NCBI GenBank assembly: GCA_963831715.1
Contig: CAWHRB010000001.1
Location: 15,287 to 79,286 of the forward strand
Reading direction: 5' to 3'
Length of the DNA stretch: 64,000 nucleotides
Source of the DNA: an uncultured Chloroflexia bacterium
Lineage (GTDB): Bacteria > Chloroflexota > Limnocylindria > Limnocylindrales > CSP1-4
In this document: positions 19,053 through 62,844 of the stretch, in pieces
Layout of the letters: each line of letters opens with the position of its first letter
How positions within the stretch are numbered: the stretch's first letter is position 1
The notes under the pieces: model-generated
Seen by the model: the letters and a program-made list of their open reading frames with translations, nothing else
What the model was told of the DNA's origin: nothing
Database searches by the model: none
Translations under genes and position numbers: made by a program

Positions 19053-19098
19053 GACCACCGACAGGCAACCTGTCGCTGACCGAGGCTAAGGTTCGGTC

Positions 19099-26614: not shown

Positions 26615-29035
<2,421 letters not shown>

Positions 29036-29121
29036 GAGCCAACTCCCCCTGGTTCCAGCCGTCAACACCCTATCACGCCCATATCGCCAAGACGTGGCGA
29101 TATCGCAAACGCATAACAGGG

Positions 29122-33924: not shown

Positions 33925-34212
33925 GGTCAGGCCTCCATTCCGGACGGGCCTAGGATGGTAGCGGCAGACCGAGGTCGGGTGGTCTGAGGTGGTGCGTCGA
34001 CGCGCCACCAGCGAGGAGTGGCCTGGCCGGCCGCTGGGCCGCGGCCCGCCTTTGTGACGCTGTTGCAATCCCGCGCCGTTGCCACGCCACCGCGTCGCAA
34101 TCCCATCGGTAGTGCACTCCGCCTGCCGGACGCGAAGCCAGGGCAGGCTGGGTGCTGGTCTCTGCGCGACATCCCGCGCACCCGTCATCCGCCCCGAACA
34201 GGACGAGGTGCC

Positions 34213-36243
34213 GTGACCGCTCTACCGCCGATCGCCGCGACCGACCTTCCGACCCGCGGTGACACGCTCCTGGACCGGGATGACGTGGCGCTTGCCTCGT
34301 TCCTGGCCGATGCCGGGCGGATCCTCGGGTCCTCGCTCGACAGCACGGCGACGCTTCGCCAGATCGCCGACCTGATCGTTCCGGGCGTCGCCGATTGGTG
34401 CGCCATCGACATGCTCGATGCTGACGGTCGGCTGCTGCCACTCGCACTTGCCCACCGCGACTCGGAGCGGATCCGTCTCGTCGAGGAGCTTCGGACCAGG
34501 TACCCGGCCGACCCGGATGCCGCTGTCGGGACCTACGCGGTCGCGCGGACGGGCCAGGCCATGGTGATCCCAGTGATCGACGAAGCGACGATCGCGGCGT
34601 CGGTCCGCGACGACGACCACCGGGAGCTGATCCGGCGATTGCAGCTCCACTCGTGGATGTGTGCTCCGATGACCGTCGCCGGGAGAGTGCTGGGCACGAT
34701 CGGGTTCGCCGCCGCGGAAAGCGGTCGGACGTTCGAGTCGCGCCACGTCGCGTTCGCCGTCGACCTCGCGGCGCGGGCCGGTGCCGCCATCGAGAATGCC
34801 CGGGCATTCCAGACGGCCGACCGCTTCCGGCAGATCCTCGACGCGGTCGCGGAGGCCGTCTTCGTCCTCGAGCCAGCGACTGAGATCATCCAGGGCACCA
34901 ATCACGGCGCCAGCGTCCTGCTGGGGCGGTCCGCCCGCGAGCTCGTCGGCCGCCGCCTCTCGGACCTCGTCGAAGAGGGCGAGGACGACCTGTCACGGAT
35001 CATCCGCGCGGTCAGGGACGGTCGTACGGAGGCGCGCACGATCCCACTCAGCTTCCTCCGCGATGGTGCGCCATCGGTGCCGGCGGAGGTCCTCCTCCAA
35101 CGGGTCGACCTGCCGGGCGAACCGCCGACGACCGTCGCGATCGCCCGCGACGTCAGCGAGCGACACGAGGTGCAGGGCCGGCTCCGACGACTCGCGGAGG
35201 CGGAGCACGCTCGGGCGGCAGAGCTCAACGCGGTCATCCGGGCGATGGGCGATGGCGTCATCGTGTGTGGCCCGGACGGCAAGACGATCCTCGCCAACCC
35301 GGCCGGACAGGCGATGTTCCCCGGTGGGGCCGAGACGAGCTATGCCAGCATCCTGTCCCGTTTGCACGATCCGGGCGGCGACGCTCCGCCATTGGGCACC
35401 CACGCCGGGCCGGTTGTCCTTCGGACGCGCGCGGAGCCGGAGCGCTGGATCGAGGTTGCGACGTATCCCGTCGTCGACCGGACCAGCGAGGGCGAGCCTG
35501 GCGGGGAGACGATACTCGTCCTCCGCGATGTGACCGAGCAGCGGCAGCGTGAAGCCGTCCGCGAGACGTTCATCGGCGTGTTGTCGCACGAGTTGCGAAC
35601 GCCGGTAACGACGATCTTCGGCGGCGCGCGTGTCCTGGCGCGAGAGGACAGCGGCCTCGACGAGGCGACCCGACGCGAGATCCTGGTCGACGTGGCCGAG
35701 GAGGCCGAGCGGCTCAAGCGACTCGTCGAGGATGTGGTCGCGTTGAACCGTTTCGGCGAGAGCGAGGGCGACCTCGGGCGCGAACCCGTCCTCCTCCAGC
35801 GCATCGTGCCGAATGTCGTCGCCTCGGAGGAGGAGCGCTGGCCGGGTGTCTCCTTCACGCTCGAGATGGCCCCTGGCCTACCGACCGTGGTCGCCGACCC
35901 GACGTATCTCGAGCAGGTGATCAGGAATCTGCTCGCCAACGCCGCGAAGTACGGTGGTCCGGGCGCGGCCGTGGAGGTCGTGGTCGAGTACGACACGGTC
36001 GCCGACGAGGTCGCGGTGTGCGTCCGCGACGATGGACCGGGCATCGAGCTGCAAGAAGCCGAGCGGCTGTTCGACCTCTTCTACCGCTCCCCGAATACCG
36101 CGACGGCCACGACCGGGGCCGGGATCGGGTTGTTCGTCTGTGCGCGGCTGGTCCGCGCGATGGGCGGGCGGGTCTGGGCGAGGCCGCTGCCCGCAGGCGG
36201 TGCCGAGTTCGCCTTCGCGCTCCGCGTGATGTCCGACGACTGA
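34213..36243 (+). CDS. Cytoplasmic sensor histidine kinase (GAF-PAS-PAS-HisKA-HATPase)
   Basis: LGSSLD..ATL...VP..ADWC (GAF), SHELRTP, RNLLANAAKY, DDGPGI, GAGIGLFVC; no TM helix. Confidence 0.92.
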   Translation: MTALPPIAATDLPTRGDTLLDRDDVALASFLADAGRILGSSLDSTATLRQIADLIVPGVADWCAIDMLDADGRLLPLALAHRDSERIRLVEELRTRYPADPDAAVGTYAVARTGQAMVIPVIDEATIAASVRDDDHRELIRRLQLHSWMCAPMTVAGRVLGTIGFAAAESGRTFESRHVAFAVDLAARAGAAIENARAFQTADRFRQILDAVAEAVFVLEPATEIIQGTNHGASVLLGRSARELVGRRLSDLVEEGEDDLSRIIRAVRDGRTEARTIPLSFLRDGAPSVPAEVLLQRVDLPGEPPTTVAIARDVSERHEVQGRLRRLAEAEHARAAELNAVIRAMGDGVIVCGPDGKTILANPAGQAMFPGGAETSYASILSRLHDPGGDAPPLGTHAGPVVLRTRAEPERWIEVATYPVVDRTSEGEPGGETILVLRDVTEQRQREAVRETFIGVLSHELRTPVTTIFGGARVLAREDSGLDEATRREILVDVAEEAERLKRLVEDVVALNRFGESEGDLGREPVLLQRIVPNVVASEEERWPGVSFTLEMAPGLPTVVADPTYLEQVIRNLLANAAKYGGPGAAVEVVVEYDTVADEVAVCVRDDGPGIELQEAERLFDLFYRSPNTATATTGAGIGLFVCARLVRAMGGRVWARPLPAGGAEFAFALRVMSDD

Positions 36244-36246
36244 CGG

Positions 36247-37221
36247 CTAGAGCCAGCGCCGCCAGTGGGCGACGCCGACGATCCCGACGGCAAGCCCCAC
36301 CATGCCGCCGATCACCAGCAGGAAGTTCGAGGCCTCGTCGAAGAACCCGAGCTTGAAGTTCATGCCCATGACCCCGGCCAGGACGACCGCGGGCAGCAGG
36401 ACGGCCGACAGCAGCGTCAACGTCCGCATCACGTCGTTGGCGCGCTGGGACACCCTACCCATGTGGATGTCGAACGTGCCCAAGAGGCTGTCGCGCAGTC
36501 CCTCGACAGCGGACATCGCCGCCTCGAGTCGGTCGACCAGCCCGGGCCACGGCTTGCCGATCGTCTCCTCGATGCCCATCCTCGGCAGACCGAGCGTCGA
36601 GAAGGCGTCGCGGTGAGGCGCCAGCGTCCGCCGCACCAGCGCGATCCTGTGGCGGAGACCGACGATCGCGTCCAGGACGTCGTCGCCCTCTTGACCGTCA
36701 AGGGCACGCTGGTCGAGCTCGTCGATCTCGCGCTCGATGGATTCGACCAGCAGGAAGTAGCCCACCAACACCTCGTCGACGAGCGCCGAGACAAGATCGC
36801 CGGCCGTCAGCACGCCGAGGTCGGTCTCGCCGTCCAGGCCGTCTCGGAAGCGTTGGAGTGCCTCCACATCGGCGTCGTGGACCGTCAACACGACGTTCTT
36901 GCCGGCCAGCAGGTCGATCTCGCGTCGCTCGAGTCGAGGGGACGCCTCCTCGGCAGGCTCCATCGCCTGGAGCGTGATGTGAAGCAGGTCCGCGGTCCGC
37001 GTGAGTCGCGCGCGACCATCGTCCGCGATCAGCCGCTCGATATCGGCGTCGCGTAGACCGAGCAGCTCGAGGGTGTCGGTGAGTTCCTGCCGGTGCGCGC
37101 GGCTGTCAATATCGACCCACAGCAGCCTCTTGGCGCCGAGTGAGCGGACGACCTCCGTGGTCAGCTCGACGCGAGAATCGCGTGCGTCGGCATCGAAGAG
37201 ACGGGCGGTGACGCCGCTCAG
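36247..37221 (-). CDS. corA: CorA-family Mg2+/Co2+ transporter
   Basis: GMN signature (GVMGMNF), NDVMRTLT, two C-terminal TMs; the frame stays open with LLWVDI up to a CTG at 37221 (first ATG at 36963). Confidence 0.8.
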   Translation of the reverse strand: MSGVTARLFDADARDSRVELTTEVVRSLGAKRLLWVDIDSRAHRQELTDTLELLGLRDADIERLIADDGRARLTRTADLLHITLQAMEPAEEASPRLERREIDLLAGKNVVLTVHDADVEALQRFRDGLDGETDLGVLTAGDLVSALVDEVLVGYFLLVESIEREIDELDQRALDGQEGDDVLDAIVGLRHRIALVRRTLAPHRDAFSTLGLPRMGIEETIGKPWPGLVDRLEAAMSAVEGLRDSLLGTFDIHMGRVSQRANDVMRTLTLLSAVLLPAVVLAGVMGMNFKLGFFDEASNFLLVIGGMVGLAVGIVGVAHWRRWL

Positions 37222-37313
37222 TGCACGAAGCTCAGCAGGCCCGCAGCGGCCACGGCGACGAAGGCGACGAGGTACTGCAGCGCGAGCATCGTCCGGTCAT
37301 GGACTGGCTCCAT
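37218..37313 (-). CDS. Small single-TM peptide (about 31 aa)
   Basis: MEPVHDRTMLALQYLVAFVAVAAAGLLSFVH; its stop overlaps the putative corA CTG. Confidence 0.45.
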   Translation of the reverse strand: MEPVHDRTMLALQYLVAFVAVAAAGLLSFVH

Positions 37314-37664
37314 GTCCCACGACGCGCTCGGACCGGGAGCGGGATCGATCAGCATCGATGTCGGGCCCTCGTACGGTGATCGTGGTCGACTGCATCGTGC
37401 TGGTCGCCACCATGCGACGAGATCGGACGGCGGAGCGTTGCGCATCGCGTCCGCATGACAACGCCATCATCGTGGGGCGTGCACGCACCACCGTGCCAGG
37501 TGATGTCGGCATCACTCGGAATGCGAGCCGCCTGCAAGGCGATCGGCGAGGTCGCTGGCATCCCCGATGCGCGCTGCGCCGTACCGTCGACACGGCCCAA
37601 GATGGATGGCCGCCCGGTGACGCCCTCGTCTCGGCCGCGCCGGACCTTCCCAGGAGGTACCCCG

Positions 37665-37820
37665 ATGCTCAAGCGACTTCTTCTGTTGGTTGCCCTAGGG
37701 GCCGCGCTGGCGGCCTGCTCGCCGTCCGGTAGTGCGAGCTCGCCGGGGGCGGAAACCCTCGCGCCGGTCGACTCCGGTCTCGAGAGCGTGATGCCGAGCG
37801 AGTCGGCCTCGCCGTCCTGA
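37665..37820 (+). CDS. Small lipoprotein (51 aa)
   Basis: RBS AGGAGG; MLKRLLLLVALGAALAAC lipobox; Ser/Pro-rich tail. Confidence 0.7.
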   Translation: MLKRLLLLVALGAALAACSPSGSASSPGAETLAPVDSGLESVMPSESASPS

Positions 37821-37835
37821 TCGACGTCAGCCACC

Positions 37836-37864
37836 GACGCCGGACCCGCAGCGGGTCCGGCGTC
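37836..37864 (+). terminator. Hairpin terminator
   Basis: GACGCCGGACCCGC/GCGGGTCCGGCGTC inverted repeat directly after the lipoprotein gene. Confidence 0.6.
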
Positions 37865-38034
37865 TTCGTGTCCGGACCCAGGATGACAAGATTCCCTCAC
37901 CGGATTCATGCCGTTGTTACGCGCCGGCCCCGGTCCGTTGTCCGAAGACCTCGTGACGACGGCGACAGTGGCGCCGAACCCGATACGGGCCCTACCCCCA
38001 GCAAAGCGGGTGAGAAGCCCGCATTGGGAAGGAG

Positions 38035-38322
38035 ATGGATGTGAGCATCATCGCGTGGATCGTGCTCGGTGCAATCGCCGGGTACTTGGCCGGTTTCCTC
38101 GTCAAGGGTGACGAGGGGCTCGGCATCATCGGGCACATCGTGCTTGGCATCGTCGGCGCGCTCGTCGGCGGCTTCCTCGCCGGGGCCCTGTTCAGCACCG
38201 ACCCGATCAACGGGGCGCTGGACATCAGTTCCATCGTCGTCGCGACGATCGGTGCCGTCATCACGGTCGTGGTCGTGAACGCCGTGATGGGCAGGAGCCG
38301 CGTCGGTCGCGGACCTATCTGA
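38035..38322 (+). CDS. GlsB/YeaQ/YmgE-family stress response membrane protein
   Basis: IIAWIVLGAIAGYLA, GIIG.IVLGIVGALVGG, SIVVATIGAVI. Confidence 0.9.
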   Translation: MDVSIIAWIVLGAIAGYLAGFLVKGDEGLGIIGHIVLGIVGALVGGFLAGALFSTDPINGALDISSIVVATIGAVITVVVVNAVMGRSRVGRGPI

Positions 38323-38360
38323 GCCCGGTCCGGGCCGGCGGCCCGGACGCCTGACATGTG

Positions 38361-38390
38361 ACGGAGCCCACCTCGGCAGGTGGGCTCCGT
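38361..38390 (+). terminator. Intrinsic terminator
   Basis: 13-bp stem ACGGAGCCCACCT/AGGTGGGCTCCGT followed by TGCGTTTCT. Confidence 0.65.
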
Positions 38391-38423
38391 TGCGTTTCTG
38401 CCACCCGCAGGAGGAGTCACCGG

Positions 38424-38900
38424 ATGTCGAGGATCGTCGAATCCATCGATGTGGACGATCCGGTCCGCACCGCATACGACCAATGGACCCAGTTCGAGGA
38501 ATTCCCGCGCTTCATGGGAGGCGTGAAGCAGGTCCGCCAGCTCGACGACACGACGCTCGAATGGACGGCCGAGATCAAGGGTGTGGAGCGATCGTGGCGG
38601 GCCGAGATCACCGAGCAGGAGCCGGACAGCGTCATCGGTTGGCGGTCCACGAGCGGTGCGCGAAACGACGGGCACGTCACATTCGAGCCGCTCGGCGAAA
38701 ATCGCACGAGAGTCACGCTCCAGCTCGACGTCGAGCCGGAGGATCCGGTCGAGAGGGCCGGGGACGCCCTGGGCTTCGTCGCGCGTCAGGTGGAGGCGGA
38801 CCTGCGCAGGTTCAAGGAGGTCATCGAGTCGCGCGGTACGCCGACAGGTGGCTGGCGGGGCGAGGTCGAGGGCGGCCAGAAGGTGAACAGCGGCCGCTGA
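38424..38900 (+). CDS. SRPBCC/polyketide cyclase-dehydrase family protein
   Basis: RBS GGAGGAG; AYDQWTQFEEFPRFM.GV, W.AEITEQ.PD, DL.RFKE.IE.RG..TGGWRG. Confidence 0.9.
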   Translation: MSRIVESIDVDDPVRTAYDQWTQFEEFPRFMGGVKQVRQLDDTTLEWTAEIKGVERSWRAEITEQEPDSVIGWRSTSGARNDGHVTFEPLGENRTRVTLQLDVEPEDPVERAGDALGFVARQVEADLRRFKEVIESRGTPTGGWRGEVEGGQKVNSGR

Positions 38901-39041
38901 GCCGCGAGGCCCATGCAAGGACCCGCAGGCCGAAGGCACGGACGACCGTGACGCCCTTCGGCCCACGCTGGGCATGTGGCTCCTGTACCACTGGGGGTCC
39001 GGGAGCCACACCTACCGCCACCGCCAGGAGGACGACCCGGG

Positions 39042-39341
39042 ATGGACCTACCCGCCATCGAGCAGTCACAGCAGACGCACCGCGCGCTGTTCGCGTGGTT
39101 CTCGAGCCCGCGGGTCGCGGTCCGGACCGCCGTCCGCCTCGGCGACACCGTACCGGGCGCACGCGTCTGCATCTGTCGGTCGGAGGATCACGGCGCCGAG
39201 GGGCCGGTCGTAGCGCTGAGTGCTCAGATCCCGTGGTCGTCGTCGACCATGGTGACGCGCCAGCTCAGCGGTATCGGAGTCGCCGTCCTATGGGATGCCG
39301 GGGACGTCGTCGACGAGCTAACAGCACGGCAGGCGGTATGA
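39042..39341 (+). CDS. Hypothetical protein
   Basis: AGGAGG 10 nt upstream of the ATG; fills the gap; no known motif. Confidence 0.4.
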   Translation: MDLPAIEQSQQTHRALFAWFSSPRVAVRTAVRLGDTVPGARVCICRSEDHGAEGPVVALSAQIPWSSSTMVTRQLSGIGVAVLWDAGDVVDELTARQAV

Positions 39342-39545
39342 GCGGCTTGTCATGCGTCTGTAATGTCCCGAGCCTGCGACATGGCAGTCACGGGACACGC
39401 GCTGGCCTACGGTCACGCCAACGACAGATCACCACAAGGCGGGCGCTTGTGACGGGGCGCACCTCCTTTAGCACGGACGGTTCGGGTCCCCTCCCCGGGC
39501 CGTCCGTCGCCTTTCTCTACCGCACAGCAACCGACCGGGGAGGTC

Positions 39546-39908
39546 ATGAAGATGAGCGCAACGACATCTGGCCGCGGGGACGCCGCGACGACGACGGATA
39601 GCGATCCGGTGGAACGCCTGGCATCGACTGCCCGCCAAGCGGCCGATTCGGTCGGCGGCGTGGCCGGCGAGGTCGCAGCGCGCCTGCCCGACGCCGCCAA
39701 CACGACCCGGGACGCATTCGATGAGGCGAACCGCCTGGTTCGTGCCGGTTCGGACCAGACGCTGAAGGTCGTGGGCGCTGCGTCATGCGCATTCGCCGCA
39801 GGCTTGCTGTTCGGTGGCGCCAATCGGTTCCTGGTGATCGCCGCCCTCGTGCCTGCCGCACTTGTCGGCTCGGAATACGTCCAGCGCCAGTCGTCGGCGA
39901 AGAAGTAG
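39546..39908 (+). CDS. Hypothetical protein with Ala-rich helix and C-terminal hydrophobic hairpin
   Basis: RBS GGGGAGGT; architecture reminiscent of tail-anchored ElaB/YqjD-type stress proteins. Confidence 0.65.
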   Translation: MKMSATTSGRGDAATTTDSDPVERLASTARQAADSVGGVAGEVAARLPDAANTTRDAFDEANRLVRAGSDQTLKVVGAASCAFAAGLLFGGANRFLVIAALVPAALVGSEYVQRQSSAKK

Positions 39909-40018
39909 CGCAACGGCGCTGATACCAGACGGCCTCCGCGATTGGGCAGCCCGCAACATGGCGGGCCGTACGTTCGATCCGACCCGCGACTGCGGGCGGC
40001 GAAGGAGGTATCGAGCTG

Positions 40019-40222
40019 ATGGACGACGTGAAGCGCACGCTGCGCGAAACCGAGGACGAAGCCAAGGAACAGGCTCGCCGCGCTGACGGTGAGGAGAGCC
40101 TGTCCGACAAGGCCGCCAACCTTGGCGACGACATCCAGACGGGTCTGGCCAATGCCGGCGACAAGGTGGACGAGGAGGTCGATCGCGCCAAGTTCCGCAA
40201 GGAGCACGGCGACGACGTCTGA
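40019..40222 (+). CDS. Small hydrophilic (CsbD/LEA-like) protein
   Basis: RBS AAGGAGG; 67 aa rich in D/E/K/A. Confidence 0.65.
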   Translation: MDDVKRTLRETEDEAKEQARRADGEESLSDKAANLGDDIQTGLANAGDKVDEEVDRAKFRKEHGDDV

Positions 40223-40245
40223 TCGACGACCCTGACCCAGACAGC

Positions 40246-40278
40246 GACGAAGCCCCGGTCCTCGGCCGGGGCTTCGTC
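40246..40278. terminator. Bidirectional terminator hairpin
   Basis: 13-bp stem GACGAAGCCCCGG/CCGGGGCTTCGTC between convergent genes. Confidence 0.7.
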
Positions 40279-40305
40279 ACGTCCGAGGACCTCCCTCCGC
40301 CTCGC

Positions 40306-41415
40306 TCAGTCCGCCGGGCGTCGACGGCTCGGACCGGCGGACATCCGCGCTTGCTGACGGAGCAGCCGCACCACCGCCATCTCTTCGTTTCGGTCGGCCT
40401 TGGTGGGCGGAGCCGTCTGTTTCTCGGCCGCATCGACAAGGGCGCCACCAAGGCTTCCATCGAGGTACGCATCGAGCACCGCGGGGTGGACGTAGCTCCC
40501 GCGGGCGACGGCCGGGGTATTGCCGAGCTTCTCGGCGGTCAGCCGCATCGCCTCGACCACATTCCGTCGCGCCGCGGGTCCATGGTCCTCTGGCTGGAGC
40601 GCCCGCAGGGCGCGATAGGCGAGTAGCGTCCCAGCCCATGTCCGGAAGTCCTTTGCGGTGAAGTCGCCACCCGATGCTTCGCGCAGGTAGTCGTTCACGT
40701 CGTCCGAGGTGACGTCGCGGAGCTCCCCGTCCTCGTCCACGTACTGGAAGAGGTCCTGACCGGGCAGCTCCTGACAACGGCGGACGATGGCCGCGAGGCG
40801 TCGGTCGCGCAGCCCGACCTCGTGCATGGTCCCGCCCTTGCCTCGGAACCGGAAGCGCACGCTCGAGCCACGGACCTTGGCATGGCGGTCGCGCATCGTC
40901 GTGAGGCCAAAGGATCGATTGAGACGTGCATATTCGTCGTTCCCGACCCGGATCAGCGTCAGCTCGAGCAGCCGAACCACGGTGGCAAGCACCTTCGCCC
41001 GTGACAGGCCACGGCGGCCGAGGTCCTGCTCGCACCGGCGGCGGATGCGTGGCAACGCCTTGGCGAAGGCGATCATCCGCGCGAAGTTGTCGGTGCCGCG
41101 GTCCGCCCGCCAGCGCGAGTGATAGCGGTATTGCTTGCGCCCTCGAGCGTCGCGACCGGTCGCCTGCAGATGCCCGTTCGGCCATGGGCAGATCCAGACG
41201 TCTGTCCAGGCGGGCGGGATGACGATCAAGCGGATCCGTTCGAGAGCGTCCGAGTCGCGGATGGTTGCGCCGTCCATGTCGCGGTAAGTGAACCCACGCC
41301 CGGCGCGATGGCGGGTGAAGCCTGGGCGGCTGTCGGTCGAGTAACGCAGGCCGCTGGCGCGTGCGACCTCACGAGGCTCGGCGCGGCTGGCGGGTAGAGG
41401 TGATGTATCGGTCAT
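40306..41415 (-). CDS. DNA topoisomerase IB (bacterial, poxvirus-like)
   Basis: IPPAWTDVWIC, GRDARGRKQYRYH, IRVGN.EY, FRGKGG, AKDFRTW, LGNTPAV.R.SYVHP. Confidence 0.93.
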   Translation of the reverse strand: MTDTSPLPASRAEPREVARASGLRYSTDSRPGFTRHRAGRGFTYRDMDGATIRDSDALERIRLIVIPPAWTDVWICPWPNGHLQATGRDARGRKQYRYHSRWRADRGTDNFARMIAFAKALPRIRRRCEQDLGRRGLSRAKVLATVVRLLELTLIRVGNDEYARLNRSFGLTTMRDRHAKVRGSSVRFRFRGKGGTMHEVGLRDRRLAAIVRRCQELPGQDLFQYVDEDGELRDVTSDDVNDYLREASGGDFTAKDFRTWAGTLLAYRALRALQPEDHGPAARRNVVEAMRLTAEKLGNTPAVARGSYVHPAVLDAYLDGSLGGALVDAAEKQTAPPTKADRNEEMAVVRLLRQQARMSAGPSRRRPAD

Positions 41416-41647
41416 GGCGGCACGGTACGGGTGCGCGCCTCGCATGGATACGAGTCGAGGGGCTTCGCTACATGCCTGCAATCTCGCATCCAAGCCGGGT
41501 TCGGCTTGCCGATAGGGACCATGTCGATACTGGAACTCGGTCCTGTCGCGACTCCTGCTCTGGGGGACGGTCGCGATAGGACTCCTTTCTACTCGGCGAA
41601 CCGAGCCCGCAGGCGACGGTCGACCGGCCCCGCAGGAGACCCCGGTC

Positions 41648-42619
41648 ATGGACGCAGTCACCATCGACGGTGCATCGAAGCACTTCGGCGACGAGGTCGC
41701 CTTGAGCGACGTCACGATCTCCGTCCCGGAAGGTTCGATCCTCGGGATCATCGGGCCGTCCGGCGCGGGCAAGACCACACTGGTTCGCCTCATGACCGGT
41801 GCGCTCGCCCCGTCCGAGGGCGAGATCCGGGTCATGGGCGAGGACCCGCAACACCTGAAGCGGCGCACACGCGAGCGAATCGGCTACATGCCCCAGCTGT
41901 TCGCTCTTTACCCCGACCTCACGGCCCGCGAGAACGTCGATTTCGTGGCTTCTCTGTTCGGCCTGCTGTGGTGGCGCCGCCGACGGCGGACGCGTCAGGT
42001 GCTCGAGCTGGTGGACCTGTGGGACGCGCGCAAGAGACGCGCGGGCCGTCTATCGGGCGGCATGCAGCGACGTCTCGAGCTTGCCTCCGCCCTGGTGCAC
42101 GACCCACAGATCCTGTTCCTCGACGAGCCGACTGCGGGGATCGACCCGTTGCTGCGTGCCACGATCTGGCACGAGCTGACGCGGCTCCGCGACGCCGGCC
42201 GGACATTGCTGGTGACCACCCAATACGTGGGCGAGGCCGAGCGCTGCGACGCCGTTCTCCTCATCGCGGACGGCAGGGTCATCGCGATCGGCACGCCCGA
42301 CGAGCTGCGCCGGTCGGCGATCGGCGGCGACCTGGTGGAGATCGAGACCTCCGAGCCGATCGACGCCAGCGCCCTGCGCAGCATCGGCGGCATCCGGCGT
42401 ATCGAGCAGCGCGGGCCGAACGAGATCCGGGCGACCGTCGACGAAGCGTCCAAGATCCTTCCGGAGATCGTCGAGGCGATCAATGCGCTCGGGATCGACG
42501 TCGGTTCTGCTGCGGAGGCGCGCCCCTCCTACGACGAGGTCTTCGCCATCCTCGTCGAGCGGGCGCGGTCATCCCCGCCGGATCGAGAACGCGCCGCCGG
42601 CGGCGAGCGAGCCGCCTGA
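41648..42619 (+). CDS. ABC-2 exporter ATP-binding protein
   Basis: Walker A GPSGAGKT, LSGGMQ, LFLDEPT. Confidence 0.93.
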   Translation: MDAVTIDGASKHFGDEVALSDVTISVPEGSILGIIGPSGAGKTTLVRLMTGALAPSEGEIRVMGEDPQHLKRRTRERIGYMPQLFALYPDLTARENVDFVASLFGLLWWRRRRRTRQVLELVDLWDARKRRAGRLSGGMQRRLELASALVHDPQILFLDEPTAGIDPLLRATIWHELTRLRDAGRTLLVTTQYVGEAERCDAVLLIADGRVIAIGTPDELRRSAIGGDLVEIETSEPIDASALRSIGGIRRIEQRGPNEIRATVDEASKILPEIVEAINALGIDVGSAAEARPSYDEVFAILVERARSSPPDRERAAGGERAA

Positions 42620-43812
42620 TGCGGACCATCCTCACCACCATCTGGCGGCTGCTCGCCTTCGTCGGCAAGGAACTCGTCGAGACGGTTCGGCGACCAGGCG
42701 CGATCGTGAGCCTTGTGGTAGGCCCATTCCTGATCATGGCCGTGTTCGGGCTGGGCTTCAGCGGCATCCGGCGTCCGCTCGAGACGATCGTCGTGATCCC
42801 GCCAGCGAGCCAGCTCCCCGCGACCGAGGCCGACTACCAGGAGCTCGCCGGACCTGCCCTCCACATCGCCGGCGTCGTCCAGGATCGGACCGAGGCCGAG
42901 GCGAGCCTGCGAGCCGGTGACATCGACCTCGTGGTGGTCGCTCCCGAGGATCCCGAAGGCGCCTTCCGGGCGGGCAAGCGCTCGACGATCGAGATCCTGG
43001 TCGACGAGGTGGACCCCGTGGCCGAGAACTACGCCACCATCCTCGGAGGCGCCCTGGCGGATGCGGTGAACCGACAGATCATCGAGCAGGCCGTCGAGGA
43101 GGGTCAGGGCTACGCGGTCCAAGCCGGCGAGGAGGCAGTCGAGGCACTGTCACCGGAGGTGGTCGCCGCGCCGACCGAGGCCCGCCTTGCCAACCTCGCA
43201 CCACAGAGCCCGACCGTCACGTCGTTTTTCGGACCGGCCGTCCTCGCGTTGATCCTCCAACACCTCGCCGTGACCCTCGTCTCGATGTCGCTCGTGCGCG
43301 AACGCTCCAGCGGTGTGATGGAACTGTTCCGGATCGCCCCGGTCACCGCCTCCGAGGTACTCGCGGGCAAGGTGCTGGCCTTCGGCCTGCTCGGCTTCGT
43401 TGTCGCCGGGCTGACGATCGTGCTGATGGTGACCTTCCTTGGCGTGCCGTCACTGGCCGATCCGGGGGCGCTCGCCGGCGTCGTCGGTCTGCTGCTCCTG
43501 GCGTCCCTCGGGTTCGGGCTGTTGATCGCCGTCGTCTCCGACTCCGAGCGGCAAGCCGTGCAGCTGTCTCTGCTGGTGCTGCTCGCATCGGTGTTCTTCA
43601 GCGGCTTCGTCCTGGCGATCGACCAGTTCACGCCACCCGTGCGCGCAATCGCGTATGCGCTACCTGTGACCCACGGGATCGAGCTGCTCCAGGACGTGAT
43701 GCTGCGCGGCTCGACGAACAACCTGTGGCAGGCTGGCGCGCTCGGCGTGATCGCCGCAGTGACGCTGATCGCGGCCTGGCTCCTGCTGCGCCGCAATATG
43801 CGAACGGCCTAG
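42619..43812 (+). CDS. ABC-2 exporter permease
   Basis: ATG overlaps the upstream stop; VRERSSG.ME, GKVL, FFSGF, LPVTH; multiple TMs. Confidence 0.9.
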   Translation: MRTILTTIWRLLAFVGKELVETVRRPGAIVSLVVGPFLIMAVFGLGFSGIRRPLETIVVIPPASQLPATEADYQELAGPALHIAGVVQDRTEAEASLRAGDIDLVVVAPEDPEGAFRAGKRSTIEILVDEVDPVAENYATILGGALADAVNRQIIEQAVEEGQGYAVQAGEEAVEALSPEVVAAPTEARLANLAPQSPTVTSFFGPAVLALILQHLAVTLVSMSLVRERSSGVMELFRIAPVTASEVLAGKVLAFGLLGFVVAGLTIVLMVTFLGVPSLADPGALAGVVGLLLLASLGFGLLIAVVSDSERQAVQLSLLVLLASVFFSGFVLAIDQFTPPVRAIAYALPVTHGIELLQDVMLRGSTNNLWQAGALGVIAAVTLIAAWLLLRRNMRTA

Positions 43813-43924
43813 TAGCTCCGCTGCGCTGCCACGGGGCTGCAACGCCCGCTCGCGCGATGCGCGCCATGCCGTTGCGGCCTCCCTGCCACCGTGTCATCAG
43901 CGACCTCCCGCATGGAGAAGCCCG

Positions 43925-44110
43925 ATGACCGACGAACGAACCAACGAGTTCCCGGGGACGCATACAGATGACGACGAGACGGGCGAGGACGCCAGGGACG
44001 CCGTCGACCGCGAGCCGCAGCCCCACAAGGACGAGCCGAACCCGCTGCTGCGCGAGGGCGCGAACGCCCCCGACGCCGCGGACATCGAGGACCCTGACGA
44101 GCAGCTATGA
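43925..44110 (+). CDS. Small acidic hydrophilic protein
   Basis: RBS GGAGA; 61 aa D/E-rich. Confidence 0.55.
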   Translation: MTDERTNEFPGTHTDDDETGEDARDAVDREPQPHKDEPNPLLREGANAPDAADIEDPDEQL

Positions 44111-44158
44111 GAGCGGCAGCGTCGATGTCGATGGACGGTCGACTGCTCGACTGATCGA

Positions 44159-45139
44159 CTACACCAACGCCGCGGCTGTCGGCGTACCGACCCGAGGCAG
44201 CACGTCGCGTGCCGCGAACTCGATGAAGCCAGCCTGATCCGGGCCGATCTGATGGATGTACACGTGGTCATAGCCGGCGTCGGTGTACTCCTGGATGCGC
44301 TCCAGATGGCGGTCGGCGTCCGGACTGCACAGGATGGCCTCGGCCACTTGGTCCTCAGTGACACTCTTGACGAGAGCGGTGAATTGCGATGGGTTCGGTA
44401 GCTCCTGGCTGACCTCGCCGTGGAGCGCTGCCGTCGGCCACCACTCGTGGGCCTTCTTGCGAGCCTTGCTCTCCGATTCGGCCCAGCAGACCGACATCTG
44501 ACCGATCAGCGGACCCGTCCCTCCCGCGTCCCTATAGGCGTCGAGCACCTTGCGGTCCGGCGCTGTCGAGATCAGGCCCTCGCCCAGCCGAGCGGCGATG
44601 CGGGCCATCTTTGCACCGCCGGCCGCGATCCTAACCGGTGGAAGCGTCTCAGGCAGCGTGTACAACTGCGCGTTCTGCACACGGTAGTACCCGCTCCCAT
44701 GGCGACTGACGATCTCCCCGGTCCACAGGTCGCGAATGACCTCCACGGCCTCCTCCAGCATCTCGGCACGGACATCCCATTCCGGCCACGCCTGGCCGAG
44801 GACGTGTTCGTTGAGGTTCTCGCCCGTCCCGAGGCCGAGGAAGAAGCGACCGGGCATCAGGTCGGCGGCGGTCGCCGCCGCGTGCGCGATGATCGCGGGA
44901 TGGATGCGCAGCGTCGGGCAGGTCACCCCCGTGCCGACTACGAGCCGATCCGTGGCCTGGGCGATGGCGCCGAGAACGCCCCACACGAACGAGCTGTGCG
45001 GATGCCGCTCGATCCACGGATGGTAGTGGTCGGAGATGAGGGCGAAGGTGAAACCCGCCTCCTCGGCCTTGCGAGCATTGCGGACGAGGTCGCGAGGGCC
45101 GTGCTCCTCGCTCGATAGGGCGTAGCCGATCGCCGTCAC
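44159..45139 (-). CDS. F420-dependent LLM oxidoreductase, G6PDH family (TIGR03557-like)
   Basis: GYALSSEEH.P, ISDHYHPW, GTGVTCP, GLGTGENLNEH, HQIGP.Q; GTG start. Confidence 0.9.
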   Translation of the reverse strand: MTAIGYALSSEEHGPRDLVRNARKAEEAGFTFALISDHYHPWIERHPHSSFVWGVLGAIAQATDRLVVGTGVTCPTLRIHPAIIAHAAATAADLMPGRFFLGLGTGENLNEHVLGQAWPEWDVRAEMLEEAVEVIRDLWTGEIVSRHGSGYYRVQNAQLYTLPETLPPVRIAAGGAKMARIAARLGEGLISTAPDRKVLDAYRDAGGTGPLIGQMSVCWAESESKARKKAHEWWPTAALHGEVSQELPNPSQFTALVKSVTEDQVAEAILCSPDADRHLERIQEYTDAGYDHVYIHQIGPDQAGFIEFAARDVLPRVGTPTAAALV

Positions 45140-45309
45140 TTGGTCCGCTCCCGCTGGTCCTTGGTCTCGCCCGCTTCGCGGCGTTCCTTGTTGACCGTCC
45201 GGGCGGCTCGCTCCTCGGCTTCGTCCTCCTTCACGCCACGGTCCTCGTACGAGTCCTTGATGTGCTCGTACTGGCGTTCGCGCTTGTCGCTCCAGGCCTT
45301 CTGCGGCAT
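45136..45309 (-). CDS. Small conserved protein (often annotated 'plasmid stabilization protein'); not in the ORF track
   Basis: RBS AAGGAGG; MPQKAWSDKRERQYEHIKDSYEDRG...AEERAARTVNKER..GE; stop overlaps the next GTG. Confidence 0.8.
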   Translation of the reverse strand: MPQKAWSDKRERQYEHIKDSYEDRGVKEDEAEERAARTVNKERREAGETKDQRERTK

Positions 45310-45436
45310 GACTCGATCCTCCTTCGGCCGTTCGGGTCGGCACGCGCGGACGCGGCCGTCGTCCTACGGTCGATGAGGACGCGTCAGCGATGCCCGGCAG
45401 TGGGTTCGCGACCGCGTCGCAGCCGCGTGGCAAGTC

Positions 45437-46579: not shown

Positions 46580-46760
46580 GACTAGGGTGACCGCGGGACC
46601 CTGCGAGCACGATCCGCGGTCGTAGTGTCTCACTACCGGTGGCAACGAGGCGATTCGCGGGTCCGTAGACGGATACACCCCGCGTATCAGCCGGATATCA
46701 GCCTCCAAAGCGCGGTGGGTCATACTCCTGCCGACTTCGCGGACCCGCAGGGAGAGCGCG

Positions 46761-48371
46761 TTGACGGATCACGTTCCGGGGACGGCAGCCAAAGCCTCAG
46801 GCCGCGCCAAGGGCGAGATCGCCCGGACACGCGACGTCCGGCTCGAGACCGGGCAGGCCATCCTCGCCGGTCTGTTCATCGGGTGGCTCGCGATCGCGAC
46901 GAAGGCGGCGATCAACGAGGCCGTCGAGGCCAACTCCTATTACGTGATCCTGATGGCAGCGGCCGTGCTGGCGGCCTGGTTCGGCGGCCTCTCCGGCGGC
47001 ATCAGCGCGGTCGTCACGACCGTAGTCCTCAACCAGGTCGTCTTCGTCGGCAACGAGAGCCAGCCGAGCGCCGCCCAGTTCCTGCAGGCGCTCTACCTGG
47101 TGACCGCGACGGCGACCGTCCTCCTGGTGGCATCGCGCCGTGCCGCCACCGATCGCCTCGCGGATGCGTTGGCTGAGGTTTCGGCATTGGCAGTCGAGGT
47201 CGAGGCGCGGGACGCCCGGCTCGAGCTGATGCTGTCGGCGTCCGGCACAGGCTTCTGGGAATGGGACATCGACACGGGCGTGCTGACCTGGTCCGAAGCG
47301 ATCTTCCGGCAGCATGGTCTCGAACCGGGTCCCGCGGCACCGGAGTTCGCCGCGTACCTGGACATGATCCACCCGGACGACCGCGCGACGTTCGAGAGTG
47401 CCATCGCCTCGGCGCTCGACGACGTAGGCAGCTTCTCGCTCGACTTCCGCGTCGTCTGGCCGGACGGCTCGATCCATTGGACCCACGGCGCCGGCAGGAT
47501 CTTCAGGGACGACACCGGCCGGCCGATCCGCATGATCGGCACGGGCCAGGACATCACCGACCGGCGACGGATCTCGGAGGAGCGCGACCGGTTGCTCGAC
47601 GACGAGCGACGAGCCGGCGCCTTCCGTGAGGCATTCGTGGATGTCATCAGCCATGAGCTGCGGACGCCGATCACGACGATCATGGGCCTCGCCCAGATCC
47701 TGGCTCGGCCGGGACGCACCGATGACGAGGCGTCGCGGATGGCGCTGCTCGAAGACGTCCGCTCCGAATCGGAGCGACTGCATCGACTGGTCGAGGACCT
47801 GGTCGTCCTCAGCCGCGTCGAACGCGGGCGGCTCGAGGTGGAGGCCGAGCCCATCGAGGCGCGCCGGCTCATCGAGCGCATCGTCACGCAGGAGGGGCGG
47901 GAGCTGCCGAGCATCACCGTCGAGACGGATCTCGACCTCGACCTGCCGATCGTCGCGGGCGAGTCGACCTACGTCGAGCAGATCGTCCGCAACCTGCTGA
48001 ACAACGCCGCGAAGTACTCGCCGACGGGAAGCCGGGTGGTGGTGTCGGCGAAGAAGGTCGACGCCGCCGTCGAGGTCCGGGTGACCGACGATGGGCCGGG
48101 CATCCCGCTCTCCTCGCTCGATCGGATCTTCGAGCTCTTCTACCGCGACCCGACCAGTTCGCGCGTCGTGGCCGGCTCGGGCATCGGCCTGTTCGTCTGT
48201 GCCAGCCTGGTCGAGGCGATGGGCGGGCGGATCTGGGCGCGGCGGCCGGAGGATGGCGGCACGGAAATCGGCTTCAGCCTGCGCGTGCTCGAGCCGGATC
48301 CATCGGACGACCATGAATGGGTCGCGGATCCGACACCAGCCCTTAGCGAGGGAACGACCCAAGCCGGCTGA
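46761..48371 (+). CDS. Membrane sensor histidine kinase (DUF4118-like TM + PAS + HisKA + HATPase)
   Basis: Four TMs, GFWEWD..WS...IHPDDR PAS, SHELRTP, RNLLNNAAKY, DDGPGI, GSGIGLFVC. Confidence 0.92.
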   Translation: MTDHVPGTAAKASGRAKGEIARTRDVRLETGQAILAGLFIGWLAIATKAAINEAVEANSYYVILMAAAVLAAWFGGLSGGISAVVTTVVLNQVVFVGNESQPSAAQFLQALYLVTATATVLLVASRRAATDRLADALAEVSALAVEVEARDARLELMLSASGTGFWEWDIDTGVLTWSEAIFRQHGLEPGPAAPEFAAYLDMIHPDDRATFESAIASALDDVGSFSLDFRVVWPDGSIHWTHGAGRIFRDDTGRPIRMIGTGQDITDRRRISEERDRLLDDERRAGAFREAFVDVISHELRTPITTIMGLAQILARPGRTDDEASRMALLEDVRSESERLHRLVEDLVVLSRVERGRLEVEAEPIEARRLIERIVTQEGRELPSITVETDLDLDLPIVAGESTYVEQIVRNLLNNAAKYSPTGSRVVVSAKKVDAAVEVRVTDDGPGIPLSSLDRIFELFYRDPTSSRVVAGSGIGLFVCASLVEAMGGRIWARRPEDGGTEIGFSLRVLEPDPSDDHEWVADPTPALSEGTTQAG

Positions 48372-48386
48372 GTCGATCGCCCTCGA

Positions 48387-51077
<2,691 letters not shown>

Positions 51078-51130
51078 GCTCGTGCCTATCGTAGGGCGGT
51101 CCGTCGTCGAGCGGAGGTTGCGGGTGGGAC

Positions 51131-51520
51131 CTACTCCGTCCCGGGACTGTCCTGCGCCCTGCCTTCCAGGCGGAGCGTGGTGTCGAGGATGTCGTCACGG
51201 ACCATCGACCGCGTCGAGGGATCGCCCGCGTACTTGCGCTCCAATGCGGCCGAGGTCCGGGCGGTGGAGTCGGGATCGCGCGCCGGGATCGCCCGGGCGG
51301 GGATCCGCCGCTTGCCGACGTGGATCGCGACCTCGGGGTTCGCCTGGGCCTCCCGGTACCAGCGAGCCGTCGGACCCCGCCAGGAGCGGACGAACACATC
51401 GTCGCCGTCGACGACGGCCCAGATGATCGTCCGATGGATCGGACCATCCGCACGGGAGGTCTCGATGCGGACGGTCTTCGCCCGCTCGATGAGGTCCAGG
51501 TCGTCCTTCGTCAAGGTCAT
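51131..51520 (-). CDS. DUF2255-like protein
   Basis: RADG..HRTIIW.V...D.VFVRS..G....WYR. Confidence 0.75.
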   Translation of the reverse strand: MTLTKDDLDLIERAKTVRIETSRADGPIHRTIIWAVVDGDDVFVRSWRGPTARWYREAQANPEVAIHVGKRRIPARAIPARDPDSTARTSAALERKYAGDPSTRSMVRDDILDTTLRLEGRAQDSPGTE

Positions 51521-51589
51521 GGCTGCAGGGTAGCAACGCCCGAAAGCGCGTGTCGCTGCGCTCGTCGCGGTCTGCGCGACCGAGCGTCC

Positions 51590-51617
51590 TGTAATGCCGA
51601 TGTAGCGGTTTTGCAAT
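51590..51617 (+). promoter_or_regulatory. Triple 11-bp-period direct repeat (OmpR-type box)
   Basis: TGTAAT-gccga-TGTAGC-ggttt-TGCAAT upstream of the small membrane protein and response regulator; similar boxes at 34053, 37522, 39348, 43827, 45416(-). Confidence 0.55.
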
Positions 51618-51684
51618 GTCGGTCGGCCATGGGCGGCAGGGGTCCGCCGGGATGCTGGGCTTCCCTGTAGGAGATCCGATCGAC

Positions 51685-51876
51685 ATGACCGAACATCGCG
51701 ACACCGTCGTCGTCAAGGATGGCGGCTCCAGCACCGGGGTGATCCTCGGGATCATCGCCATCATCATCGTGCTCGCCCTCGGGTGGTATTTCCTGATGGG
51801 TCCTGGCGCGGGTGCGACCAGCCAGCCCACCGACATCAACGTCAACGTCGAGTTGCCGAGCGTCGCGCCGTCCTGA
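51685..51876 (+). CDS. Small single-TM membrane protein
   Basis: RBS AGGAGA; GGSSTGVILGIIAIIIVLALGWYF. Confidence 0.7.
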   Translation: MTEHRDTVVVKDGGSSTGVILGIIAIIIVLALGWYFLMGPGAGATSQPTDINVNVELPSVAPS

Positions 51877-51936
51877 CCGACGTTCCGCTGACGTATCGGA
51901 CGCTTGTCCGGCACCATTGACCCCAGGAGGTGCCAT

Positions 51937-52692
51937 GTGAGTACCCAGCCCCTCGTCCTCGTCGCCGACGACGAGCCTCGCATCACGAAGCTCGTTTCGA
52001 TCGCGCTCGGTGAGGAAGGGTTCCGCGTCGTGACTGCCAGCGGTGGTGAGGACGCCCTCCAGAAGGCCGAGGAGGTTCGGCCCGACATCGTCCTCCTCGA
52101 CATCGTCATGCCCGACCTAGATGGGATCGAGGTCATGCGCCAGCTGCGCGAGCGCCGACCCGTGGCGGTCATCCTGCTCACGGCCAAGGGCTCGACCGCC
52201 GACAAGGCGAAGGGCTTGGACCTCGGCGCCGACGACTACATCGCCAAGCCGTTCCACCCCGACGAGCTCGCTGCGCGCGTGCGCGCTGTGTTGCGTCGAT
52301 CCTCGGGCGCCAGCCCGGGTTCGGGCGTGCTCGCCTTCGACGACATCGAGATCGACCTCGAGCGGCGGATGGTGACCCGCAACGGGGAACTGGTACAACT
52401 CTCCCGCACGGAATGGCTGCTGTTGCAACACCTGGCCGCGAATGCCGGCAAGGTCGTGCTGCATACCGAGCTGCTCACCAAGGTGTGGGGCCCGGAGTAC
52501 CGCGACGACCTCCAGTACCTCCGGGTCTGGGTCTCGCGTGTCCGTCGCAAGCTTGGCGCTGAGCCTGGCGAGCCGGGCCGGATCAAGACCTTCCAGGGCA
52601 TCGGCTACCTGCTCGACGTCGAGCCGCCGACGCCGCCGGAGACCGTCGAGCCGACCCCCCAGAAGGACGAGGAGTCGGCGCTCATCGGCTAG
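51937..52692 (+). CDS. OmpR/KdpE-family response regulator
   Basis: RBS AGGAGG; LVADDE, LLDIVMP, LTAK, GADDYIAKPF; wHTH ELL.KVWG..Y....YLRVWVSR.RRKL, GIGY. Confidence 0.94.
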   Translation: MSTQPLVLVADDEPRITKLVSIALGEEGFRVVTASGGEDALQKAEEVRPDIVLLDIVMPDLDGIEVMRQLRERRPVAVILLTAKGSTADKAKGLDLGADDYIAKPFHPDELAARVRAVLRRSSGASPGSGVLAFDDIEIDLERRMVTRNGELVQLSRTEWLLLQHLAANAGKVVLHTELLTKVWGPEYRDDLQYLRVWVSRVRRKLGAEPGEPGRIKTFQGIGYLLDVEPPTPPETVEPTPQKDEESALIG

Positions 52693-62785: not shown

Positions 62786-62815
62786 GTGTGATGCGGACGT
62801 GACGCCGGAGGTTGG
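62786..62815 (-). promoter_or_regulatory. ECF-type promoter, copy 2
   Basis: CCAACC-N15-GCATCACAC, same elements and spacing as 61501-61530. Confidence 0.65.
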
Positions 62816-62844
62816 CGGCAGATCTGAACGCGTACCATCCGTCG

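Follow-up and report, generated by a model that had tools for sequence, protein, structure and literature searches.

A conserved direct-repeat element and a structured small RNA in a Limnocylindrales-type Chloroflexota genome: a candidate regulon of an orphan OmpR/PhoB-family regulator

Introduction

The stretch of DNA analysed here (the window; 64,000 nt, C1:15287-79286, where C1 is the contig) comes from a Limnocylindrales-type Chloroflexota metagenome-assembled genome (MAG) of 3.19 Mb with 69.5% GC in 4 contigs. Its intergenic regions hold recurring pairs of TGYNAY hexamers, arranged head to tail and separated by five nucleotides, and it encodes two histidine kinases and an OmpR/PhoB-family response regulator at 51937-52692. 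The locus raises the question of whether these boxes are a real regulatory element and, if so, which protein binds them and what kind of programme they serve. A preliminary description of the same DNA had proposed a general stress response run by the OmpR-type regulator, with autoregulation and with input from several kinases, rather than by an alternative sigma factor.

We report that the boxes are a genuine conserved cis-element whose period is typical of OmpR/PhoB-family regulators. It is probable that they are the sites of the orphan regulator 51937-52692, which would activate a core regulon that includes a small RNA (sRNA). Positions are those of the window unless a contig is named.

Results

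The direct repeat in the window and in the genome

The strict pattern, TGYNAY-N5-TGYNAY, matched five times in the window, compared with 0.68 ± 0.79 matches in 100 dinucleotide shuffles, none of which reached five. Over the whole 3.19-Mb genome, 26 matches were obtained at the N5 spacing, whereas the other spacings between N0 and N15 gave 6-17 apiece. Eighteen of the 26 were intergenic, versus 0-8 at the other spacings, and 15 of these 18 face a gene start 48-235 nt downstream. When distances between same-strand TGYNAY pairs were tabulated for intergenic DNA, a peak was seen at distance 11 (18 pairs), most other distances holding 0-7 pairs and distance 5 holding 11; the peak was absent from coding DNA. 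The N5 excess is present in the genus (246 matches, compared with 164 at N7) and is gone in the sister family (196 versus 200), where neither the regulator nor the RNA described below was found. These counts, set against shuffled, other intergenic and coding DNA, bear out the recurrence of the box that the preliminary description had noticed.

The refined consensus of the sites is approximately T-TGYNAY-GCGNY-TGCAAY-GTC. A position weight matrix (PWM) was trained on the top 22 sites. At a threshold of at least 16 bits, the matrix found 22 intergenic matches; shuffled intergenic DNA gave 1.0, and the other 2.75 Mb of the genome gave 10. These figures are to be read with the self-training of the matrix in mind. 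Iterating the PWM at a low threshold made it drift to GC-rich GCGAC repeats, with about one third of the matches at shuffle level, and the top-22 matrix and the strict pattern were used instead. Housekeeping promoters served as controls (AceE, isochorismatase, 5'-3' exonuclease, IMPase, DUF2255, GT4 and kinase 2), and only 1 of 38 contained any match of at least 10 bits. The best sites are concentrated, 9 of 19 falling in C1:1-67 kb, which is 2% of the genome; the window therefore sits inside a target island. The gene order of the island is kept throughout the genus, and in relatives the strict matches gather at the corresponding position.

Sites at individual promoters

The sites and the features around them are listed in Table 1. 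All of the strict copies in the preliminary description (34053, 39348 and 43827 on the plus strand, 45416-45432 on the minus strand) matched the pattern, and of its weaker copies those upstream of CorA and of the ABC-2 transporter operon were upheld with one mismatch each. The triple repeat at 51590 also stood, its last pair scoring 15.8, and doubles or triples recur in orthologues. The copy at 37904, upstream of GlsB, gave a divided result: its score is poor and its first hexamer is variable, but it aligns with a block kept in most of 25 genus orthologues and becomes a strict match in one relative (L150). Four other copies, at 37522 (PWM 6.9), 39375 (6.5), 38903 (4.1) and 39909 (-10.3), score at background level, are not conserved and were dropped. 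The 39375 interval in particular is not conserved in the alignment upstream of the 120-aa gene, and the second tandem pairs at 39375 and 34085 were rejected as not conserved or weak. A further strict site, at 29102, lies outside the range that the preliminary description covered.

When promoters of orthologous genes in relatives were compared, the motif was found at the regulator gene, kinase 1, CorA and the RNA promoter, and in variant form at GlsB. It lies upstream of 15 of the 18 loci that hold a relative of the 120-aa gene, and the three loci without it are the weakest protein matches. For kinase 1 the motif precedes 4 of 6 loci, namely the window's own and its three closest orthologues, and for CorA it is found in two of three orthologous promoters (scores 17.6 and 12.0). 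Among the testable close orthologues of the regulator gene, 9 of 13 have the site at a PWM score of at least 18, and 12 of 13 have it by eye, often as a triple.

Other matches were noted away from these promoters. A one-mismatch site at 18755-18771 (PWM 8.6) lies upstream of an RNase_H_2/SF1-helicase gene (19943-22702), within a gap of 1.4 kb (18539-19943) that is gene-free according to a crude caller. Another one-mismatch site, at 62787-62803 (PWM 15.9), leaves only 8 nt to the called start of a gene of the PNPOx family (62812-63288); this is too close for the usual geometry, and therefore either the start is miscalled or the match arose by chance. On contig C3, three to four tandem hexamers with an 11-bp period (C3:1198730-1198765, L084 ~12731-12765; PWM 18.7-19.9) lie between two plus-strand genes and point opposite to both, with no gene called downstream in that orientation.

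A structured RNA and the spacing of its promoter

The alignment upstream of the 120-aa gene contains three conserved blocks, which are the motif, a -10-like hexamer and an element of about 75 nt. The last of these, absent from the preliminary description, belongs to a structured RNA that lies past the 39348 site and ahead of the 120-aa gene. Two hairpins make up the fold of the RNA: a 5' one whose GUGACGG loop is invariant, and a 3' one of 16 bp whose C-rich loop, CCCCUCC, is likewise invariant. A U-rich tail follows. Its folding energy is -46.1 kcal/mol (z -2.86). A covariance-model alignment of 44 sequences had 96.6% of cells paired over 21 pairs, 15 of the 21 pairs being changed on both sides; none of 500 shuffles reached the observed values and slid controls were 39-48% paired, with the qualification that the alignment was fitted to the model. 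Rfam, including 6C, gave no match at E ≤ 1 in window positions 30000-56000, and a simple promoter/terminator scan of 39300-39600 called nothing, the terminator-like hairpin and U-rich tail included. Judged by its sequence, the C-rich loop appears to be anti-Shine-Dalgarno-like, and the RNA may represent a new family among the sRNAs with C-rich loops.

The covariance-model search located the RNA in 50 of 108 family genomes and in 10 of the 28 genera of the order, and in none of 42 sister-family genomes. Genomes of one genus (g5) carry 2-4 copies each. Divergent extra copies were seen in this genus (e.g. L178, L181), two of which were examined and had no upstream motif; some RNA paralogues in g5 may therefore be controlled in another way.

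In one relative (L005) the RNA and the 120-aa gene lie on opposite strands, and in genera g5 and g12 the RNA and the regulator gene point towards each other; the RNA therefore appears to behave as a gene of its own. A role as leader or attenuator of the 120-aa gene, which in this genome starts only ~27 nt past the U-tract, is still conceivable.

Across genera the motif is found upstream of 37 of 43 RNA loci. In 34 of these 37 promoters the motif is followed by a TAnnnT hexamer at 42-44 nt, and in 26 the distance is exactly 43 nt. The distance from TAnnnT to the RNA core varies by tens of nucleotides, unlike the distance from the motif to TAnnnT, and no -35 is conserved in the interval between motif and hexamer in the RNA-promoter alignment. 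The GlsB promoter has the same spacing of 43 nt between its motif and a conserved hexamer. For the top 22 sites of the genome, TAnnnT clusters at 21-23 nt (4 sites) and at 43-44 nt (3 sites), two helical turns apart. If the hexamer is taken as a -10 at -12 to -7, the centre of the site therefore falls at about -64, an activator-type position, from which we infer activation rather than repression. RpaB-activated promoters have sites centred from -66 to -45 (PMC6525291).

At the regulator's own site no -10 at a fixed distance could be established by eye. A short conserved block resembling GTCACCAT was observed at 51910-51917 and at the same place in relatives L002-L009, ~20-30 nt ahead of the start codon of the regulator in most close orthologues; either a proximal -10 or a translational element could be present there.

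The regulator and the kinases

The translation of 51937-52692 has the residues of a response regulator in readable form, with a DD acidic pocket, an acceptor Asp in an LLD motif, and the T and K residues. Its closest relatives are from MAGs labelled Chloroflexota, Chloroflexia or Candidatus Limnocylindrales. The regulator gene has no adjacent kinase gene in this genome, and neither of the two kinase genes of the window adjoins a regulator gene. Among the 15 OmpR-family (PF00486) genes of the genome, it is the only one with a site in its upstream intergenic region. A site was found upstream of 8 of 20 regulator orthologues from other genera and of 1 of 32 distant homologues (≤ 61% identity), and none was found in genera g5, g12, g17, g18, g26 and g28. 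The site being absent in several genera, autoregulation would be frequent and not universal.

The regulator and the RNA occur together. An orthologue of the regulator is carried by 50 of 51 RNA-bearing genomes, versus 26 of 100 genomes without the RNA, counts that come from related and often incomplete genomes. The two genes are convergent and within 400 nt of each other in 14 genomes (12 of g5 and 2 of g12), and in other genera they are 7-17 kb apart in the same island. The regulator 51937-52692 is the best candidate and the most likely binder of the sites.

The preliminary description had proposed input from several kinases, and linkage that points to such input was found for one of the two. 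Genes resembling kinase 1 are found directly upstream of the regulator gene in L009, L014, L204 (genus g28) and L208 (genus g22), and ~1.1 kb upstream of it in L013; in L009 and L208 the motif sits between the kinase-1-like gene and the regulator gene. Kinase 1 also ranks among the conserved targets, with the motif at 4 of 6 loci, and together with this linkage that makes a partner of the kinase-1 type (GAF-PAS) likely, probably in a positive feedback loop. Kinase 2 has no motif upstream, either here or in L004, and no linkage to the regulator was found for it. A third PAS kinase gene was observed at C1:11988-13169, divergent from the top-scoring site of the genome.

Genes in the region

Pfam and NCBIfam confirmed the families named in the preliminary description (GlsB/Transgly_assoc, SRPBCC/Polyketide_cyc, TopIB, F420 G6PDH-like, the two kinases and the OmpR-type regulator), with the exception of its CsbD-like assignment. 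The small proteins have no Pfam family at E ≤ 0.01, their matches being at chance level (E 0.057-0.37) or lacking at E ≤ 1. No Pfam or NCBIfam family was found for the 120-, 67-, 61-, 57-, 63- and 51-aa proteins, nor for the 72-aa and 132-aa proteins of C1:1939 and C1:13347. Two look-ups of small proteins in a protein atlas returned only hypothetical clusters of Chloroflexota, with a weak DUF883_C lead (0.78) for the 120-aa/67-aa entry. The region also contains GT4 glycosyltransferase, AceE and DUF2255 genes.

The GlsB/YeaQ and SRPBCC genes, with a 36-nt gap between them, are likely to form an operon. In most of 25 genus orthologues the 5' leader of GlsB has a conserved hairpin (37997-38030; outer stem CCCCAG/TTGGGG, inner stem GCGGG/CCCGC) that directly precedes the ribosome-binding site and may be a regulatory RNA structure. 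The ~450 nt between SRPBCC and the 39348 site (38900-39348) hold only a low-scoring 99-aa open reading frame (ORF; 39042-39341).

Table 1. Direct-repeat sites, promoter elements and genes of the window. Positions are those of the window; scores are from the top-22 PWM, and strict denotes a full match to TGYNAY-N5-TGYNAY.
Feature	Position	Strand	Basis or remark
Strict site upstream of CBM96/PKD protein gene (26615-28975, minus)	29102..29118	-	Strict match
SIMPL gene	33277-33924	-	Pfam/NCBIfam
Site upstream of kinase 1	34053..34069	+	Strict match, PWM 24.1
Kinase 1, GAF-PAS-HisKA-HATPase	34213..36243	+	Pfam; start uncertain, ORF open from 34018
CorA-family Mg/Co transporter gene	36247..37296	-	Pfam CorA E 1.5e-46
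Site upstream of CorA	37444..37460	-	1 mismatch, PWM 20.5
Variant site upstream of GlsB, first half-site degenerate, second TGTTAC	37904..37920	+	PWM 1.0
Conserved -10-like hexamer GACAGT, 43 nt after GlsB site	37964..37969	+	Block in GlsB alignment
GlsB/YeaQ gene	38035-38322	+	Pfam Transgly_assoc
SRPBCC gene	38358-38900	+	Pfam Polyketide_cyc
Best-conserved site, structured-RNA promoter	39348..39364	+	Strict match
-10 hexamer TACGGT, 43 nt after 39348 site	39408..39413	+	TAnnnT spacing across RNA promoters
Candidate sRNA, ~95 nt	39420..39520	+	Covariation, fold; 5' end inferred, conserved core from 39436
120-aa membrane-anchored protein gene	39546-39908	+	No Pfam/NCBIfam family
67-aa hydrophilic protein gene	40019-40222	+	No Pfam/NCBIfam family
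TopIB gene	40306-41277	-	Pfam/NCBIfam
Site facing ABC-2 transporter operon, divergent from TopIB	41466..41482	+	1 mismatch, PWM 21.2
ABC-2 transporter operon	41648-43812	+	Pfam/NCBIfam
Site upstream of 61-aa gene	43827..43843	+	Strict match, PWM 21.8
61-aa acidic protein gene	43925-44110	+	No Pfam/NCBIfam family
F420 G6PDH-family LLM oxidoreductase gene	44159-45139	-	TIGR03557 431 bits, cut-off 210
57-aa hydrophilic protein gene	45136-45309	-	No Pfam/NCBIfam family
Site upstream of 57-aa and LLM oxidoreductase genes	45416..45432	-	Strict match
Kinase 2, PAS-HisKA-HATPase	46761..48371	+	Pfam
Triple repeat upstream of 63-aa and regulator genes	51590..51617	+	1-mismatch pairs at 51590 and 51601; last pair PWM 15.8
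63-aa membrane protein gene	51685-51876	+	No Pfam/NCBIfam family
OmpR/PhoB-family response regulator gene	51937-52692	+	Response_reg PF00072 E 1e-30, Trans_reg_C PF00486 E 1.4e-19

Discussion

The proposed regulon

The reading that we consider probable is that the boxes are the sites of the orphan regulator 51937-52692 and that the regulator activates a core regulon which includes the sRNA. The computation itself shows that the motif is non-random and conserved, that its spacing to the -10 is fixed, and that the RNA is structured and linked to the regulator gene; the identity of the binder, activation as the mode of action, the kinase partner and the label of stress or dormancy are proposals built on this. 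A kinase of the kinase-1 type (GAF-PAS) would phosphorylate the regulator; a tandem head-to-tail dimer of an OmpR/PhoB-family protein, most likely this one, would occupy the boxes; and the phosphorylated regulator would activate promoters without a recognisable -35 from a fixed upstream position. The regulator's own gene would be fed back positively in this genus and in several others. As judged from the conserved sites, the candidate core consists of the ~95-nt RNA with the 120-aa gene behind it, kinase 1, CorA, GlsB-SRPBCC and, in this genus and several others, the regulator gene. Candidate variable members are the small hydrophilic proteins, the ABC-2 transporter and, elsewhere in the genome, a second GlsB paralogue with an RDD protein, LtrA, a Rieske/DUF2231 protein, a BBE oxidase, TadE pilus genes, ABM plus MgsA, dynamin-like GTPases and an operon with an ECF-type sigma factor.

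Several observations weigh against this reading. One relative (L010) has no site upstream of the regulator, and among the orthologues from other genera 12 of 20 have none within 700 nt upstream, including all of genus g5 (0 of 6 with a site). Some candidate targets are poorly conserved: for the 57-aa gene the motif was found at three of six loci, one of them the window's own, and at 0 of 2 in a second set, 3 of 8 overall, and for the ABC ATPase and the 67-aa gene at 1 of 4 orthologous promoters each. Neither of two orthologous TopIB promoters has the motif, and the 41466 site faces the ABC operon instead, so that TopIB, a target in the preliminary description, is withdrawn. TGTNA-type half-sites are common to many OmpR-family regulators, and the motif alone singles out none of the 15 paralogues. 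On the side of method, the gene calls were made with a crude GC3/codon-usage caller, and the intergenic fraction that follows from them, 11.5% of the genome, is approximate. The PWM was trained on the top 22 sites that it then scores, and its high scores are in part circular for that reason. No such circularity affects the counts of the strict pattern, the controls with other spacings or the comparison of orthologues. Finally, the sampled genomes are related and many are incomplete, and this non-independence means that the co-occurrence counts overstate the support and are supportive rather than proof.

What the regulon is for

A different reading accepts the regulon and its regulator and questions the physiological label. 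The regulator 51937-52692 would run a narrower programme on an intracellular cue received through the GAF-PAS kinase, concerned with the envelope or membrane and ion homeostasis, or with dormancy. This is quite possible, if a little short of an even chance. The core targets fit it, as they comprise CorA, membrane-anchored and small membrane proteins, GlsB (a membrane protein), the ABC-2 exporter and the sRNA. The other candidate targets form a mixed set (TadE pilus genes, dynamin-like GTPases, BBE oxidase, Rieske protein), and no chaperone, catalase, Dps or universal stress protein gene was seen downstream of a top site. CsbD was not detected. Against it stands the stress-type content of the candidate sites, which includes two GlsB paralogues, SRPBCC, LtrA and small hydrophilic proteins, all typical of general-stress or desiccation regulons in other phyla. 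The present evidence does not discriminate between the narrow and the general-stress labels. The target set is compatible with a stress or dormancy programme and is no proof of one.

Which protein binds the sites

Another of the 14 remaining OmpR-family regulators might bind the motif, with the 51937-52692 gene merely one of its targets. The number of PF00486 genes in the genome leaves room for this, as does the wide sharing of TGTNA-type half-sites in the family, of which the WalR/VicR site type TGTWAH-N5-TGTWAH, a direct repeat of hexamers, is an example (PMC4168254). The mycobacterial regulators PhoP, RegX3 and MtrA, together with KdpE, match 51937-52692 with nearly equal E-values, so nothing singles out its specificity, and genus g5 has no autoregulatory site. 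We regard a different binder as improbable, as no other OmpR-family gene has a site upstream, 50 of the 51 genomes with the RNA target also have this regulator, the two genes being neighbours in 14, and the target sites cluster around the regulator gene in a conserved island.

Sigma factors

The second hexamer (TGCAAC, TGTAAC or TGTTAC) could be read as the -35 of an ECF-type sigma promoter, which would make the regulon sigma-driven. At ECF promoters the -35 is often of the 'AAC' type and the -10 of the 'CGT' type, a conserved CGT(A/T)GTCC follows the TGTTAC of the GlsB promoter at ~15 nt, and the genome has 30 sigma-70 region-2 matches. This reading is nonetheless very unlikely. CGT is found 14-18 nt after the second hexamer in only 1 of the top 22 sites, the upstream hexamer is kept at exactly 11 bp in orthologues, and the conserved downstream element is a TAnnnT 43 nt off, beyond any -35/-10 spacing. 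An ECF promoter, which would call for conserved -35 and -10 elements ~16-17 nt apart, was accordingly rejected for the bulk of the sites.

The proposal of the preliminary description that the response is run by a two-component regulator instead of an alternative sigma factor is not established, given the 30 sigma-70 region-2 matches; moreover, one candidate target operon itself encodes an ECF-type sigma factor (C3, L090:2143-2661, downstream of the candidate site C3:1096548). An ECF-type sigma factor gene was also observed in the window at 59814-60404 on the minus strand, ~7 kb beyond the regulator.

That the boxes arose by chance or from base composition in GC-rich intergenic DNA can be dismissed almost entirely: four of the weaker copies do score at background level, and with one mismatch allowed the window has 30 matches versus 18.6 expected, so that many single-mismatch matches are noise, but for the strong copies chance is refuted by the spacing-specific and intergenic-specific excess, the conservation in orthologues and the fixed spacing to the -10.

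Wider significance

A broader proposal would extend the regulon of 51937-52692 to the whole family in Limnocylindrales-type Chloroflexota. One orphan OmpR-type regulator and a cytoplasmic GAF-PAS kinase would run the stress or dormancy programme of the cell by means of a class-I-like promoter code of fixed geometry, and the anti-Shine-Dalgarno sRNA, as the most conserved output, would spread the signal post-transcriptionally. We hold this to be a speculative extension, possible but unlikely as a whole. If true, general stress control in this phylum, for which no such master regulator is known to have been described, would combine a two-component system with an sRNA. A narrow literature search found no regulon or sRNA of such features in Chloroflexota, which is not proof that none has been published.

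For a lineage known only from MAGs, the analysis supplies a regulatory code made up of a consensus, a spacing of 43 nt up to the -10, candidates for the regulator and the kinase, and a target list, and this code can be tested in vitro or in a heterologous host without cultivation. It also supplies a structured RNA that may form a new family and is linked to a two-component system, with strong covariation and a presence in 10 of the 28 genera sampled in the order.

Comparison with known systems

By its sequence features the system is an OmpR/PhoB-type regulon whose regulator would work like those of the WalR, RpaB and MtrA types while being a member of none of these orthologous groups. Its NCBIfam scores fall below every equivalog cut-off (RpaB 211 versus 330, MtrA 201 versus 300, YycF 185 versus 340).

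WalR controls cell-wall hydrolases, whereas the candidate targets here are small stress-type proteins and an sRNA. WalR/VicR (YycF) of Firmicutes is otherwise alike in belonging to the OmpR/PhoB family and in binding two direct-repeat hexamers with a 5-nt spacer (PMC4168254), and its half-site resembles TGYNAY. It differs in that the regulator here scores far below the YycF cut-off, is not in an operon with a kinase, and has a GC-shifted half-site (TGCAAY).

RpaB of cyanobacteria, with its HLR1 site, is the best NCBIfam match of the regulator, and its site is likewise a direct repeat. RpaB activates from sites at -66 to -45 and controls stress-acclimation genes and the sRNA PsrR1 (PMC6525291). 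HLR1 is a pair of octamers 2 nt apart with a 10-bp period (bioRxiv 10.1101/443713). The targets of RpaB are photosynthesis genes, unlike those proposed here, and repression from sites that overlap the transcription start is not evident in the window.

The actinobacterial regulators MtrA, PhoP and RegX3 bind direct repeats with a period of ~11 bp and lie in operons with their kinases. Together with KdpE, the mycobacterial proteins are the closest solved relatives of 51937-52692 by sequence (E 6e-49 to 2e-47). Their phylum and their targets differ from those of the present system, and for MtrA the score is below its cut-off.

The SigB, EcfG and RpoS general stress regulons overlap with the candidate targets in the kinds of genes they contain, GlsB/YeaQ, SRPBCC, small hydrophilic proteins and LtrA being typical members. 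They differ in their promoters: the shared element here is an 11-bp-period repeat at -64 combined with an ordinary TAnnnT -10, with no sigma-specific -35/-10 pair.

The RNA, finally, may be compared with the actinobacterial 6C RNA and with RsaE/RoxS of Firmicutes, sRNAs whose C-rich loops are complementary to Shine-Dalgarno sequences. It resembles them as a short structured RNA with an invariant C-rich loop of that complementarity and a terminator-like 3' hairpin. It is unlike them in having no Rfam match at E ≤ 1, in combining one C-rich loop with a GUGACGG loop, and in belonging to Chloroflexota.

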